Positions 3,268-52,091 of a stretch of DNA of 64,000 nt are shown one piece after another. The DNA is from a virus. The stretch covers positions 10,194-74,193 of IMG/VR virus record IMGVR_UViG_3300043411_000952. One strand, 5' to 3'. The notes beneath the pieces are model-generated. The model was not told the DNA's origin and did not search any database. It was given only the letters and a program-made list of their open reading frames with translations. The translations under genes were made by a program, and so were the position numbers. The stretch's first letter is position 1. Each line of letters starts with the position of its first letter.

Positions 3268-3522
3268 ATGAACTCTAATACTCCAGAAAGCCCGGCTCGT
3301 TGTGTGCAGCCTGCTTGTTCGGCCTTCTTGCGCACGATCAATGGCGATCTCTACACTAAGCCTGTCTTCACTGCCCTGGATGACTGCTATGAGCAGGGGC
3401 AAGCCGCAAGCTCACAGGGCTACCGCCGCGACCAAAATCCGTATCCCAAGGGCACCGCTCAGCGGGAATGGTGGGATGGCGGATACTGCAACGAAACCGA
3501 CGAACTAACTGGAGAAGCATGA
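3268..3522 (+). CDS. Rmf/CrpP-like small protein
   Basis: CYEQGQAA..G.....NPY......REWWDGGY resembles the ribosome modulation factor pattern. Confidence 0.55.
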   Translation: MNSNTPESPARCVQPACSAFLRTINGDLYTKPVFTALDDCYEQGQAASSQGYRRDQNPYPKGTAQREWWDGGYCNETDELTGEA

Positions 3523-3830
3523 GCACGGGAGAAATCATCATCAATGCAGTAATTCGCGCTGCCGCTGTCGAATCTGCTGTAATCACTGAGGGCAGAACCG
3601 TCTTTGTGTGGGCGACAAATGCCGCAGAGCAGATTGAAGCCGCGATTGCAGAGGCAGGCTACGAACTGAGGCCGAACATGATGTTACCTTCGCCTTTGAT
3701 GTCCCTTATATTCACTGGTCCTTTAGTAGTTTGCATACCCGCAGTATTCGGTAAACCTCCTGCTCTGAAACTTCCAAAGCTTTTAGCCTCAGGTATAGAA
3801 ACGCGTTCTGGGTTTAGTGTAGACTTTTGA
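3519..3830 (+). CDS. Hypothetical protein; 3' part reads antisense into the kinase-like gene
   Basis: ATG overlaps the previous stop (ATGA); composition changes near 3670. Confidence 0.45.
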   Translation: MSTGEIIINAVIRAAAVESAVITEGRTVFVWATNAAEQIEAAIAEAGYELRPNMMLPSPLMSLIFTGPLVVCIPAVFGKPPALKLPKLLASGIETRSGFSVDF

Positions 3831-4264
3831 AATCTCTGAACGAAATCTAGCCACTGTTTTTTATTACTGGAAGGTAGTGACAAGATTTCCTTCAATACAT
3901 TAGGTTTAGGAGGTGCCGCGTTTAATCTTGGAATTGCATAGCCTCTCCCACCTCTGATCGTAGACAGAATCTCCGGGAAAATGGACGAGGAAGAGAATAA
4001 GTTCTTTATGCTCTCTACTCTTTTTTCAGCTCTAGGTGATCCTTTTTGAGATATGAGCTTTAAGGCGGAAGGCCCGTGCTTTCCGGTAAAGCTTTCGTAA
4101 ACTTTACCTTCTCCGCCGCCGCCTAGTAGCTTTGGTTTGCCCTCTACATTTTTCAACAGCCTTGTTTTATTTGCCGGAAGACCTGCAGTTAATTTTTCTA
4201 TACTTTTAGGAGACAGTCCTTTAGCCAAAGCGCGAACCCAAGCTGGTGTCGCTTGCTTATTCAT
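3659..4264 (-). pseudogene. Protein-kinase-like ORF, apparently C-terminally truncated
   Basis: LGGGGEGKVY Gly loop, SALK lysine, IRDIKGEGNIM catalytic loop, then a stop with no DFG; likely start MNKQAT at 4264. Confidence 0.55.
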
Positions 4265-9002: not shown

Positions 9003-10445
9003 ATGAGTAAAGAAGTTCACCTCATGTGGGATGATTCTGTACTGACTATTGCCCCTTCCAGTCCTGCATTGGAAAAGTTTCTGACTTATAGGGAAAAGAA
9101 GTTGGCTCAGGATCCGAATTGCCCATGGAAAAAAGTTACTAAGGTAACTGTAAATCCTTTATACAAAGTCATAAATCAGCAGAATGGATACAATGTTATC
9201 CAGACGATGCAGGGTATGTGGTTGAAAGTAAAAACATTTTTAGAGGATAAAGGCTACGACGTAAAGTTCTACGACATGCGTTTAGCTTTCCCTAAACCTC
9301 GCTTAGACCTGATGTGCGGATTTAGATTTAAACAAGAAGAACTCCTTACTTCCTTTTTAAGTACAAATTGTAGCGGACTATTAGGTGCGCCCACTCGGTA
9401 TGGGAAGACGGTCCTAATCAAAAATACTATACGTGCGTATCCAAATGTACACACAGTAGTCACTGCTCCCGGTGCAGATTTGGTAAAACAACTGTATGAA
9501 GACATTAAAGAAGCGTTACCTCATAGGGAGGTAAAACTAATAGGCGCAGGTTCTACTAAGAGTCCATGCGATGACATTAATGTCGTAAGCATGGATAGCT
9601 TGCATAAGTGCGATGCCGCCGCTTGTAGATTATTATTAGTTGATGAGCCACATGCGTGTGTCACAGACAGTCGTTTACCTGAGCTAGCCAAATTCGATAA
9701 GGCACGTCGTATTGGGTTCGGTGCTACTCTTAAAGGTAGATTTGATCAGCGCGATATTCTTATTGAAGCGCTGCTTGGTCCGGTTATTGCAGAGCGCACA
9801 TTCCAAGAAGCTGTAGCTGAAGGTGCTGTGTGCCCTCTTATTGTGTACATGGTCGTGATGCCTTTAGCAGGTAATTCGGATGACCGTGATCGCGCATACA
9901 AGACGCATCTATTTAAAGGTGAGCGCGTAGCTAAGGCTGTGCGCTGGATTTGTCATGAGCTTCTCCCTCAAGACTGGCAGACCTTGCTCTTTATTAAAAA
10001 TGAAGACCAGGCTGAATACTTTCTAGATTGGGTTGGGCAGGACGGTACTATCGCCATGGCCAAACGCATGACCAAGAAGGAGCGAGAGGAGTTAATGGAA
10101 AGAATGCGTGGCGCTGAAATCAAACGCTGCCTGGCTAGTGAAATATATGCACAGGGTGTGACCTTCAACCATGTGCGCGCTCTTATTAATTTAAGTGGCG
10201 GAGGCGCTAACACATCCACAATTCAAAAACCTGGCAGGCTTGCGGAAGTACGGCCAGATAAGAAGTGTGGTGTTGTGTTTGATTTCTTCTTCACTCCGGG
10301 AACAGGTAGGGGGAACGGGATTCAAGCTTTATATCGCGAGTCCCTGGCTCGAGTTAAAGCATACACAGAAAAAGGTTACGAAATTATTTTCGTAGACGGG
10401 TATAATGAACTCGAGTCCTCGTTTAAATCCAAAGCCATATCTTGA
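9003..10445 (+). CDS. Superfamily 2 helicase (UvsW/Rad25-like)
   Basis: APTRYGKT, VDEPH, GAT, QGV and QKPGRL motifs. Confidence 0.88.
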   Translation: MSKEVHLMWDDSVLTIAPSSPALEKFLTYREKKLAQDPNCPWKKVTKVTVNPLYKVINQQNGYNVIQTMQGMWLKVKTFLEDKGYDVKFYDMRLAFPKPRLDLMCGFRFKQEELLTSFLSTNCSGLLGAPTRYGKTVLIKNTIRAYPNVHTVVTAPGADLVKQLYEDIKEALPHREVKLIGAGSTKSPCDDINVVSMDSLHKCDAAACRLLLVDEPHACVTDSRLPELAKFDKARRIGFGATLKGRFDQRDILIEALLGPVIAERTFQEAVAEGAVCPLIVYMVVMPLAGNSDDRDRAYKTHLFKGERVAKAVRWICHELLPQDWQTLLFIKNEDQAEYFLDWVGQDGTIAMAKRMTKKEREELMERMRGAEIKRCLASEIYAQGVTFNHVRALINLSGGGANTSTIQKPGRLAEVRPDKKCGVVFDFFFTPGTGRGNGIQALYRESLARVKAYTEKGYEIIFVDGYNELESSFKSKAIS

Positions 10446-31659: not shown

Positions 31660-31679
31660 TGTGTTATAAATAATTGTGG
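31660..31679 (+). promoter_or_regulatory. Phage promoter motif copy 3
   Basis: TGTGTTATAAATAATTGTGG. Confidence 0.7.
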
Positions 31680-31705
31680 ACCGCTCACATATTATCACCA
31701 CTTCC

Positions 31706-31824
31706 ACGGGTGCAGTTACTCTTGCAGTAGCTGCACCCGTCTTCATTTCTTTTATCGGCCTAGTTTCTACGCTATGGCCGATAATACCAATTTTAACCGT
31801 GGGCTCCATCTGGTTCGCGGTTAA
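31706..31824 (+). ncRNA. Three tandem strong hairpins (structured leader or small RNA)
   Basis: Stems 31706-31720/31726-31740, 31752-31760/31776-31784, 31793-31804/31813-31824. Confidence 0.55.
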
Positions 31825-31835
31825 CAACAAAGGCC

Positions 31836-32753
31836 ATGACAACAACAACAACAACAAGGGCGGGCAATCCCCCGCAGAAAAACAAGGTAGAGGAGACCGT
31901 GCTTAGCCACGCTCCTTTGCAGAGGCAGGGGAAGGCACAGCAGGAATGCTGGGCTAACTTCGGTCTGTCGTTCCAAGCGCAGGGAGGTAAGGCCTTCCTG
32001 CAGCCAGGTCAGTTCTTGCCAGTGTGGAGTCGCACTGGTTCTCAGTGGCGTTGTAAAACGCCGTGCCGTCTGGATGTTGTGTCTGCCTTCGTCATAGAGG
32101 GTCGATACATGATCCGTGGTGGAGATAGTAAGTTGTCGTCCCACCCTGAAATTCAGGACTGGGGAGATGACACGCCTCCCGTAAGGGGGCAGGCGTCGGA
32201 ACTTCGCTTTCCGGGCGGCGTCAGGAGAGTTAATCCCAGTAATCTACCCATGCTTGCGTCAAACGCGGGCAACTACGAAGGCCGCGCCATAACGGCAAAA
32301 GCCTTCCACGATGGGTTTAACTCCGCAACCCTGTATACGGGCTGCCCGATCGAGCTAGTTTGTCGCTTTGACCAAGTGCCAAACAACCTACCTCTTACTG
32401 CGCGCACCATCATCGATGTTGTACGCGGCGATACGGCTTGTGGGTGGTCATTACCCATACCCATGGTGCTGTCCAACGAAGAGGAAGTAGTCCTAAAAGA
32501 CTACCCTCAAAACTGGACAAAGGCGCTGGAGGTTATGCTGTCTTACTTTGGCGTTGCTGAGGTGGGTATCATGTACACAGCATCGGGCGAGGAATTGGTA
32601 GAGGACATCAGCCACGACAGACCGAACGAGGTCTATCGTAATGCCCTCATCAAAGGAGACTTGGGGTTCAGCACGCTGGATCCTAGCCTGTATGAGCGGA
32701 TGCTGCCGTTCTCTACGGGCAACTTCGACGCTTCACTCATCTCAGGAGTCTAG
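31836..32753 (+). CDS. Hypothetical protein (accessory cassette)
   Basis: 305 aa GC-richer ORF between promoter motif and terminator. Confidence 0.65.
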   Translation: MTTTTTTRAGNPPQKNKVEETVLSHAPLQRQGKAQQECWANFGLSFQAQGGKAFLQPGQFLPVWSRTGSQWRCKTPCRLDVVSAFVIEGRYMIRGGDSKLSSHPEIQDWGDDTPPVRGQASELRFPGGVRRVNPSNLPMLASNAGNYEGRAITAKAFHDGFNSATLYTGCPIELVCRFDQVPNNLPLTARTIIDVVRGDTACGWSLPIPMVLSNEEEVVLKDYPQNWTKALEVMLSYFGVAEVGIMYTASGEELVEDISHDRPNEVYRNALIKGDLGFSTLDPSLYERMLPFSTGNFDASLISGV

Positions 32754-49423: not shown

Positions 49424-49890
49424 GTGTACCTCGAAATAAAACATCAGCGTCCAAGCTTATAGCGTTAATAAATAAGAGCGCAAAGGTTGGGCGTTATAAG
49501 GTATCCCCTAAAGAAGCCAGGACTTACAACGGTATTGTCTTTGATTCTAAATGGGAGGCTGAGACATATAAGTTACTACTTACTTTATTACCTGAAGGTG
49601 TAAAGATTCATAAGCAGGTTAATTTCCTTTTACAGGAAAAGTTCAAGGACTCTAATGGTAAGGCTGTACGGGAGATTAATTACCTAGCCGATTTTGTAAT
49701 TACCCGGGAGGAGGAGTTACAGGCTAATGTAATTCCTGAGGATGCCTTTGTTATTGATTCCAAAGGACACCTTACTGATATATTTAAAATAAAGAATAAG
49801 CTGTTCATGTATAAATACAGAGCCCTTATTCATCAGGTTAAATCTGCTAAAGATGTAGCAGTTGTTGTTGATTTATATAAGGCGCAATAG
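49420..49890 (+). CDS. DUF1064-like PD-(D/E)xK nuclease
   Basis: GIVFDSKWEA, QVNF.LQ, Y.ADF, IDSKG..T..F.IK.KLF. Confidence 0.8.
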   Translation: MSVPRNKTSASKLIALINKSAKVGRYKVSPKEARTYNGIVFDSKWEAETYKLLLTLLPEGVKIHKQVNFLLQEKFKDSNGKAVREINYLADFVITREEELQANVIPEDAFVIDSKGHLTDIFKIKNKLFMYKYRALIHQVKSAKDVAVVVDLYKAQ

Positions 49891-49900
49891 GGTATCCCCT

Positions 49901-49920
49901 TGTGCTATATATAATTGTAG
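49901..49920 (+). promoter_or_regulatory. Phage promoter motif copy 5
   Basis: TGTGCTATATATAATTGTAG. Confidence 0.78.
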
Positions 49921-50205
49921 CGGATAGCAGTATCTAATACATTTAGTTAAAATTTATACCACACATGGGACCAGATCAGGTCCAGGTGAAATTCCTTGAA
50001 ATACGTGCATACCCTAGTTGCCCTGGTCCAGGCAAGCAAGTATGTAAATAAGTTCAAGATGAAAACGCGTGGGTGTAAGTCCCACCACCTGGTAAGCGAG
50101 ATAAAAAAATTGGAGCAATCCAAGCCCATAAGAGGGCCGCGAAGTCAACATCTAACGAGATGCTCTGCAACCAATTCAGCCGAAAGGCAAACACGATAGG
50201 GTAGT
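49921..50205 (+). ncRNA. Putative structured RNA with tRNA-like acceptor/T-arm domain
   Basis: CCAGGTG 49982-49988 pairs with CACCTGG 50086-50092, directly after GTGGG-TGTAAGT-CCCAC; nested helices inside. Confidence 0.6.
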
Positions 50206-50237
50206 TGAAAACAACAAAACCAAACAAAATAAAGTAT

Positions 50238-50465
50238 ATGAGTACTAAAGTCGGAACCATACACACGCCCAACACAAAAAAAGGCGGATACCCGTATTAC
50301 GGGAATCCTGTAAACCTTTACCTTGGGGAAGGTGACCCAGCGGGCATGTGTCACGCTTGTGAAGAACCAGCTGAATTAGGGTTGCCAGAAAGCCACCCGA
50401 CAATCCGCCGCCCAGATCTGGGCGGCGGATTCTACATGGCGGCTCTTTTCCCAATCCCCGCATAA
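50238..50465 (+). CDS. Small hypothetical protein
   Basis: ATG after an AC-rich leader; CHAC; terminator follows. Confidence 0.55.
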   Translation: MSTKVGTIHTPNTKKGGYPYYGNPVNLYLGEGDPAGMCHACEEPAELGLPESHPTIRRPDLGGGFYMAALFPIPA

Positions 50466-50470
50466 GAAAG

Positions 50471-50511
50471 AAAGGGGGTGTGGCTTTGCTGCATCTCCCT
50501 TTTTTACCTAT
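50471..50511 (+). terminator. Terminator ending in TTTTTACCTAT
   Basis: AGGGGGTGTGGC / GCTGCATCTCCCT plus T run. Confidence 0.75.
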
Positions 50512-50539: not shown

Positions 50540-50559
50540 CGGGTTATATATAATTGTAA
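50540..50559 (+). promoter_or_regulatory. Phage promoter motif copy 6
   Basis: CGGGTTATATATAATTGTAA (5' end diverged). Confidence 0.7.
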
Positions 50560-51160: not shown

Positions 51161-51180
51161 TGTGTTATATAAATTTGTAC
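51161..51180 (+). promoter_or_regulatory. Phage promoter motif copy 7
   Basis: TGTGTTATATAAATTTGTAC. Confidence 0.8.
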
Positions 51181-51224
51181 GGATAGCAATATCTGTTAAC
51201 AAACCAAGAGAAATAATACATCCT

Positions 51225-51587: not shown

Positions 51588-51944
51588 TTATTTATTGAAA
51601 ACTTGTTTGTATGCCTGGTTGTGCGTTAATTTGTTTTTGGTAATGAGATCGCACATTTGAGCAATATTTTTCAATGAGAGTTCTGGATTATGAATTTCTC
51701 CATGGCAGTTGTGGCATACCAAAGCGCACTTGCTAAGCTCTTCTTCAGCGCCACGCAGAGACAATGTAATCAGATAAGTTCCTGACAGCCTTGTAACTTT
51801 ATCTCTTATGTGGTGAAAAGCTAAACTCGAAATATTCTTTTTGTATCCGCATATCACGCACTTACCTCCTGCCTTTTTTATGAGACCGTACTTCCTTGTT
51901 AGTCTCATTACTCTATTTCTTTTTGAAGATGAGGGACTAGGCAT
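51588..51944 (-). CDS. Free-standing HNH endonuclease
   Basis: GGKCVICGYKKN..SLAFHH ... ELSKCALVCHNCHGEIH; ATG 51944 follows TTGCCG-N16-TATATT on the - strand. Confidence 0.82.
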   Translation of the reverse strand: MPSPSSSKRNRVMRLTRKYGLIKKAGGKCVICGYKKNISSLAFHHIRDKVTRLSGTYLITLSLRGAEEELSKCALVCHNCHGEIHNPELSLKNIAQMCDLITKNKLTHNQAYKQVFNK

Positions 51945-52091
51945 GATGTAATATACGGTAAGTGGCGTAGGCGGCAAGCCATCTTCAGAGCGTATCGTTT
52001 GCGTTCTTTGACCTCGAGTGAGGTTGACATGCATTTATCAAATAAACTCTTGCGCTAAGAGGGATATTGGTTAATGCATGGAATTCTCTTT

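Follow-up and report, generated by a model that had tools for sequence, protein, structure and literature searches.

The window analysed here is a stretch of 64,000 nucleotides taken from IMG/VR record IMGVR_UViG_3300043411_000952 (positions 10,194 to 74,193). It belongs to a linear viral contig of 74 kb, which CheckV estimates to be about 41% complete. The genes of this contig lie nearly all on the plus strand, and its contents include replication and recombination proteins, inteins, HNH genes, a group I intron and three tRNAs detected by ARAGORN. Close to position 50,000, a transcription unit reads from its sequence as a promoter, a 5' hairpin, a block of about 245 nt, an A-rich leader, a gene for a protein of 75 amino acids (aa) and a terminator, in that order. 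Its features are listed below, where P1 and P2 are helices of the block, MFE is the minimum free energy structure, X15 is an environmental contig and L001 and L004 are related phages.

49900..49919, plus strand: promoter motif TTGTGCTATATATAATTGTA, of a repeated family, 81-82% identical at the corresponding place in relatives L001 and L004
49922..49935, plus strand: 5'-terminal hairpin GGATA-GCAG-TATCT, pair probability 0.74-0.82
49958..50206, plus strand: conserved RNA block, kept as a unit while its flanks vary
49968..49983, plus strand: local hairpin GGACC/GGTCC, probability 0.7-0.97, whose 5' strand (49968-49974) doubles as candidate partner in the pseudoknot
49982..49988, plus strand: 5' strand of P1, CCAGGTG, acceptor-like, 7 bp, perfect complement of 50086-50092, in the MFE
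49995..50058, plus strand: long arm P2, built of three helices separated by internal loops and present in both MFE and centroid
50069..50085, plus strand: T-arm-like hairpin GTGGG-TGTAAGT-CCCAC, directly abutting the 3' strand of P1 (zero linker)
50086..50092, plus strand: 3' strand of P1, CACCTGG, followed by TAAG and not by CCA
50096..50168, plus strand: second domain, closing helix GCGAG/CTCTGC round three hairpins, in the MFE and the centroid
50179..50188, plus strand: hairpin GCC-GAAA-GGC with a GNRA loop, the same 10-mer being present in the leader of relative L004
50207..50237, plus strand: A-rich unstructured leader before the start codon, AT skew 0.42-0.50, with indels in X15
50238..50465, plus strand: gene for the 75-aa protein (P0001), homologues at 43-70% identity
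50402..50431, plus strand: 30-nt perfect palindrome (13-bp hairpin) inside the gene, encoding residues that are not conserved in the family
50474..50505, plus strand: intrinsic terminator, 11-bp stem (50474-50498) and T run, which ends the unit

A promoter-like motif of 14 nt, TATATATAATTGTA or TATATAAATTTGTA, is present in the window in 11 copies, where 1.66 would be expected, and falls in repeat families D3, D6 and D8. Its copies typically lie directly 3' of a CTTTTTTACCTAT-type terminator and 5' of a gene, and the terminator of the present unit has CTTTTTTACCTAT in common with the phage's other terminators. The common form of the motif contains TAnnTTTG, which we take to be the -7 box of Bacteroidota promoters, and we therefore infer a Bacteroidota host. 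The copy at 49906-49919 is one of three exact copies and is the predicted site of transcription initiation for the unit; the next copy downstream of the unit is found at 50545. The original prediction had described the RNA as promoter-driven, and the abundance of the motif, its retention at the same spot in relatives and the adjoining 5' hairpin all support this description. Nearly identical hairpins are present 3' of other promoter copies (2682 and 51166) and of the relatives' promoters, which suggests that the post-promoter stem-loop may be a 5'-end protecting part of the promoter module. A hairpin of the form CGGRTAG...ATCTG directly follows the motif at 2682-2711, 49906-49935 and 51166-51195 of the window, at 3481-3510 in L001 and at 3487-3518 in L004; other relatives have a different sequence at this spot and retain the hairpin fold. 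An AU-rich spacer separates the hairpin at 49922-49935 from the folded block.

At the other end of the unit, the 75-aa ORF is a real gene. Its codon log-odds lie above those of all off-frame ORFs, and searches among 1.8-5.8 billion proteins recovered the relatives of P0001 (43-70% identity), a tiny family of 75-109 aa. Searches of IMG/VR, JGI metagenomes and GTDB genomes did not recover this family, and the protein has no Pfam, PHROG or Atlas match. AlphaFold2 produced, from 8 sequences, a small beta-rich model (pLDDT 92.9), for which Foldseek retrieved no similar structure from PDB or BFVD and VIA-align likewise gave no match (best Z 2.4). A protein of 116 aa, P0003, was rejected as an independent homologue, since it is made of the P0001 N-terminus and an antisense reading past the palindrome at 50402-50431, that is, a fold-back assembly chimera. 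No terminator was found between the block and the 75-aa gene.

Codon usage and protein searches indicate that the block itself is non-coding. It contains an ORF of 67 codons with a TTG start (49996-50199) and, within it, an ATG-initiated ORF of 46 codons (50059-50199), and the longer frame had been named as the feature that might turn out to be the conserved one. That conservation should reflect a small protein, the product of either frame and a basic peptide, is now very improbable, even though the frame is open inside a conserved block and the AT-rich context upstream of the inner ATG resembles that of the phage's other genes. The codon log-odds of the two ORFs (-0.06 and -0.14 bits per codon, respectively) are like those of the off-frame null, with a mean of -0.12, while chunks of real genes average +0.36 and none of 351 real 46-codon chunks scores as low. 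The inner 46-residue peptide has no aromatic and few hydrophobic residues, and the sole natural change in the block (50084 A>G) is non-synonymous, from His to Arg. Among 5.8 billion proteins, none of 36-118 residues has at least 3 five-residue words in common with the block ORF; this frame was therefore never predicted by gene callers, whereas databases do contain the 75-aa protein. Antisense ORFs in the block were also discarded, their products being hydrophobic and encoded opposite an A-rich strand; the longest loses its start in X15, in which the block is kept.

All pairings originally listed are present at their positions, and the MFE of 49982-50092 is the three-way junction that had been drawn. 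This core has an MFE of -37.2 kcal/mol and a z of -4.1, none of 200 dinucleotide shuffles being as stable; z reaches -3.3 for the 320-nt leader and -5.3 for the whole unit. To gauge the background, 862 windows of 111 nt from the initial 31.9 kb of the stretch were folded; their mean z was -0.75 and 25 of them had values of -4 or below, which places the core in the top 3% or so and makes it unexceptional for this genome. The helices of the long arm P2 (49995-50000/50053-50058, 50006-50012/50040-50046 and 50018-50022/50031-50035) pair with probabilities mostly of 0.8-1.0, the apical one with 0.59-0.96, and the T-like arm with 0.72-0.75. In the partition function, P1 has an ensemble pairing probability of only 0.07-0.43, and the pairing of GGACC (49968-49972) with GGTCC (49979-49983), at 0.7-0.97, takes two P1 bases. 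The second domain, which comprises the hairpins TTGGA-GCAA-TCCAA (50110-50123, with a GNRA loop), 50124-50137 and 50149-50162, has a z of -2.3 to -2.5 alone.

A possible pseudoknot had also been proposed. The apical loop of P2 has 8 nt (50023-50030) and contains CTGGTCC (50023-50029), which is indeed complementary to GGACCAG (49968-49974); by our own arithmetic, the chance of finding a 7-nt complement to a hairpin loop within about 180 nt is about 2-3%. While the complementarity holds, the GGACC strand prefers the local hairpin at 49968-49983, which competes with the pseudoknot as well as with two P1 pairs. The local hairpin has an energy of -7.3 kcal/mol versus -11.3 for the pseudoknot duplex, and the nested state comes to -40.8, compared with -37.9 for the remainder when both pseudoknot strands are held free. 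After the usual pseudoknot penalty, the nested and pseudoknotted states are approximately iso-energetic.

The core was described at the outset as having the geometry of a tRNA acceptor and T-arm without TTC (UUC) or CCA, and this description is accurate: a 7-bp stem is flush with a 5-bp/7-nt arm. The contig (148 kb over both strands) was searched for a 5-bp/7-nt hairpin abutting the 3' strand of an all-Watson-Crick 7-bp helix with its 5' strand 30-200 nt upstream. The bare, flush 7/5/7 geometry occurs at 8 sites, five of them obviously accidental. Once the T-arm rules are added (U and A at loop positions 1 and 5, respectively, and closure by G-C), 3 sites are left, namely tRNA-Ile, tRNA-Leu and the present element, where our own estimate of the chance expectation is about 0.08 sites. 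The loop UGUAAGU, closed by G50073-C50081, has the U54...A58 and the G53-C61 of a T-loop; the stem GTGGG/CCCAC fits the GTNGG/CCNAC pattern of the T-stems of the phage's own tRNA-Ile and tRNA-Leu, and the base at -1 of P1 is U. The element thus shares with tRNA (RF00005) the unbroken run of a 7-bp and a 5-bp stem, capped by a 7-nt loop with U1, A5 and a G-C closing pair.

The geometry is specific, yet in other respects the element departs from a tRNA. D arm, anticodon arm and variable region are all missing, and a 64-nt arm (49995-50058) lies in place of the first two. Its loop reads UGUAAGU and not UUCRANY, with G and U at positions 2 and 3, and TAAG stands 3' of the stem where the phage's own tRNAs carry ACCA. 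ARAGORN found no tRNA or tmRNA at the element at settings that included default, -ps and -ps80, and a 276-nt Rfam search gave no tRNA (RF00005), tmRNA or YrlA match up to E = 10. Among Rfam riboswitch and leader families the best score was 12.2 bits (SAM-SAH, threshold 40), followed by 11.4 bits. The Infernal/Rfam check suggested with the original prediction has thus returned no family, and membership of the tRNA or tmRNA families is not supported. A group I intron was rejected as well: the strand order disallows a P3/P7 pseudoknot and there is no RF00028 match, while the true group I intron of the window scores 59 bits. The sequence GGTGAAATTCC resembles the T-loop hairpin of the cobalamin riboswitch, but this candidate was dropped in view of the lack of a B12 box and of any Rfam match.

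By analogy, UGUAAGU probably forms a T-loop-type module, a reading supported by a match to group II introns and by the hairpin D1A of the O. iheyensis group II intron, which is a T-loop organising a five-way junction (PMC3964913). Alternatively, the loop could be read as a GUAA tetraloop with a U-G closing pair and one bulged U. The Rfam family group-II-D1D4-4 aligns to 50067-50101 with 11.4 bits (threshold 49; E = 2.2), and a group II intron of a metagenome contig, L019, carries an identical 13-nt hairpin, GGGTGTAAGTCCC, near its 5' end. This contig is organelle-like, and Rfam confirms its intron at 1005-1925 on the minus strand; the 5' region of the intron has two T-loop-type hairpins, AAGG-TGAAATT-CCTT and AAGGG-TGTAAGT-CCCTT, the second being the phage match. 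A similar motif is present in a second contig, L020, where the group II intron was judged by eye only.

It would be tempting to see in these likenesses a fragment of group II intron domain 1: the 50069-50085 hairpin matches the consensus at the start of group-II-D1D4-4 as well as the 13 nt of the L019 intron, and the hairpin D1A of group II introns, a T-loop in O. iheyensis (PMC3964913), has the sequence GGGTG-N-AAGTCCC and the loop type in common with it. We nevertheless consider such an origin scarcely credible and membership effectively refuted. The score lies far below the threshold (11.4 bits against 49) at an E of 2.2, no D5/D6 (RF00029) match exists anywhere in the window, and nothing beyond the hairpin aligns to a group II intron. 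The hairpin alone is common to both; the catalytic domains are absent here, and the junction topology differs, as the closing stem here has its 3' strand after the hairpin, in the manner of a tRNA.

The stretch occurs in 20 public runs from 11 studies of freshwater, wastewater, groundwater and digesters. Contigs of four runs (X9, X11, X14 and X15) were aligned; the runs marked 'RNA?' are wastewater total-nucleic-acid libraries, probably DNA, and the aligned material consists entirely of contigs. X14 corresponds exactly to 49958-50206 with zero differences. X11, from a fourth study, covers 49882-50284 and has an unrelated upstream flank. X15 covers 49850-50260, after which it is unlike the window, the divergence beginning after codon 8 of the 75-aa gene. 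X15 differs at one position only between 49963 and 50210 (50084 A>G, by which U50070-A50084 of the T-like arm becomes a U-G pair), while its flanks show six events in the 72 nt before the block and three indels in the leader after it. The contrast between 1 event in 244 nt of block and 6 in 72 nt upstream is significant (Fisher p = 7e-4); the upstream region itself includes spacers adjoining an unchanged promoter. In contigs of three further studies the block is kept with both flanks changed, and all block copies found are at least about 95% identical. The block of about 245 nt would therefore be either under selection or recently exchanged as a module; the difference in conservation between block and flanks could come from recent recombinational transfer and not from selection. 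In X9, which corresponds to 49850-49977 of the window, the promoter region is present twice with 500 nt of other sequence in between, a duplication consistent with cassette insertion by recombination at repeated promoter and terminator sequences.

Comparison with six related IMG/VR phages (L001-L006) shows that the locus is a hypervariable cassette site. In these relatives the neighbouring DUF1064 (resolvase-like) gene is 73-88% identical, the promoter is kept at the same spot and most keep the adjoining hairpin, while the slot 3' of DUF1064 (about 3460-4200) is hypervariable. In L001 and L006 a short leader is followed by an unrelated ORF of about 70 codons, with a terminator and an HNH-like gene in antisense orientation; L004 instead encodes a hairpin RNA of 75 nt, which contains the same GCCGAAAGGC hairpin and ends in a terminator of its own. 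In L001 and L006 a simple hairpin, ATACC...GGGTAT, is followed by AAAACAA, and here TACC (49957-49960) and GGTA (50200-50203) lie round the block. Neither blastn nor a covariance model of the core (R1) located the block anywhere in the full records of five relatives. No homologue was found by blastn against 50,697 phage records of GenBank or with four DNA patterns in IMG/VR, and the phage's own contig has no paralogue. A two-anchor pattern gave 24 matches in JGI metagenomes which, sifted by blastn, model R1 and inspection, were due to chance apart from the two group II intron-like ones (L019 and L020); one pattern gave 6 matches in GTDB genomes, all by chance.

Taken together, the best-supported reading is that of an orphan leader module, structured and non-coding, which belongs to a mobile small-gene cassette and has a tRNA-type acceptor/T-arm stack at its core. 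The original prediction of a tRNA-mimic non-coding RNA or regulatory leader is thereby retained as regards a structured non-coding unit, its tRNA-type geometry and its position in a leader, and loses any membership of a tRNA or tmRNA family. A regulatory leader fits the anatomy because no terminator separates the stretch from the conserved gene. Two more specific roles had been offered as examples. Nothing favours a decoy for anticodon nucleases, the element having no anticodon-like arm. RNase P chiefly recognises a stem of 7 bp stacked on a T-arm, and with such a stack, of 12 bp, modelled here and a U at -1, a role as RNase P substrate is structurally plausible.

We tentatively favour, at less than even confidence, the possibility that the block is a processing and stability module recognised by RNase P in the leader. 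The 7-bp stem and the 5-bp/7-nt T-loop-type arm would form the 'minihelix' measured by tRNA-processing enzymes; host RNase P would recognise it and cut between U49981 and C49982, and the cut would free the 5' hairpin segment from a stable folded RNA, from a trimmed small-gene mRNA or from both. The choice between the local hairpin (49968-49983) and the pseudoknot (49968-49974/50023-50029) would decide whether the full 7-bp stem forms. The tertiary T-loop, the cleavage by RNase P and any such switch are all putative. Counting for a processing module are the fold of the core (z -4.1), the rarity of the geometry, the U at -1, the conserved and non-coding block and the lack of a terminator. Against it stand the low probability of P1 (0.07-0.43) with its favoured competing hairpin, a z that about 3% of windows reach, a loop without UUC, the blank results of Rfam, ARAGORN and tmRNA models, the failure to find a diverged homologue, and the missing CCA, which bacterial RNase P normally uses. 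A precedent is provided by YrlA of M. smegmatis, which has a 7-bp acceptor-like stem, is a substrate of RNase P and receives CCA (PMC4201824).

Other explanations compete with a processing module. The block may have no RNA function at all and be a shuffled spacer or remnant, for instance a decayed tRNA-like gene or an insertion into the relatives' leader hairpin, with incidental stems and a recent spread of the cassette. We regard this as doubtful. In its favour, the slot is hypervariable, the six relatives keeping promoter and 5' hairpin but carrying other small ORFs or a 75-nt hairpin RNA; the cassette turns up in other contexts (X11 and X9); every copy found is at least about 95% identical; z is ordinary for the genome; and the ATACC...GGGTAT hairpin of L001 and L006 can be set beside the TACC...GGTA that brackets the block. 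What a remnant does not readily explain is a rate of 1 event in 244 nt next to 6 in the 72 nt just upstream, a sole change that preserves a pair, and a combination of T-loop and 7/5/7 geometry otherwise confined in this genome to real tRNAs.

The second explanation, that of a cis-acting translational regulator of the 75-aa gene, responsive to a ligand, a protein or temperature and toggling between hairpin and pseudoknot on a tRNA-like stack used as scaffold, appears unlikely. The block lies directly upstream of the conserved gene with no intervening terminator, 49968-49974 has two mutually exclusive pairings of similar energy, and GNRA loops together with a T-loop-type hairpin are typical of compact tertiary folds. 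However, the predicted pairings leave the A-rich start region free, searches up to E = 10 brought up no Rfam riboswitch, and X15 keeps the block though its gene sequence diverges after codon 8; riboswitches, moreover, form classes, whereas this element is an orphan. Finally, host tRNA-processing enzymes might excise the block from the mRNA leader, after which it would persist as a stable, non-decoding tRNA look-alike, with only the acceptor and T-arm of a tRNA, a long arm and a loop pseudoknot, and act in trans, for example as a ligand that ties up a host or defence protein able to recognise the elbow or acceptor of tRNA. Such a trans-acting RNA is decidedly improbable; if it did exist, it would be a new design among the poorly understood phage tRNA mimics, on a cassette that moves between genomes.

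To our knowledge, phages carry several kinds of non-decoding tRNA-shaped RNAs, most without known function. The stable RNAs of T4 (species 1/RNA C and RNA D) and T5 (RNA1 and RNA2) are phage-encoded, non-decoding and of unknown function, and have tRNA-like ends. Judged by their descriptions, these are free-standing genes in tRNA clusters, whereas the present element is an mRNA leader without CCA, located 2 kb upstream of the tRNA cluster. In tmRNA, the acceptor 5' strand is followed by a short joiner, a long helix in place of the anticodon stem, a further joiner, the T-arm and the acceptor 3' strand. The element has the same strand order as this tRNA-like domain, but not its G3-U70 (position 3 is A-U), CCA, tag reading frame or pseudoknot ring. 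YrlA-type Y RNAs are non-decoding RNAs with a tRNA-like module, and related sequences are reported in 22 phages (PMC4201824). The element, likewise non-decoding and with a tRNA-like module, differs from them in having no Rfam match and no D-arm mimic, and in having GNCGAAN0-1G only in its 3' hairpin (50179-50186) and not near the 5' end. Ro60/TROVE (PF05731) was not found in the 74-kb record, itself about 41% complete.

As judged from sequence, the element is at present an orphan found in near-identical copies, a candidate and not an established new class, and its role as a tRNA mimic is only an idea. If real, it would represent a minimal version, with acceptor and T-arm only, in the leader of a mobile small-gene cassette, and would offer a simple test case for whether tRNA mimics are processing signals or trans-acting decoys.

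Elsewhere in the window, a promoter copy (31665-31835) is followed by a leader of about 170 nt with very strong hairpins, which precedes an ORF at 31836; 111-nt windows of this leader have z values of -7 to -10, the strongest of the 862 scanned in the first 31.9 kb. A weak HNH endonuclease match (E = 5e-4) lies at 51588-52034 on the minus strand, just upstream of the tRNA cluster, and represents a second antisense HNH gene, the other one being located in the tRNA intron.
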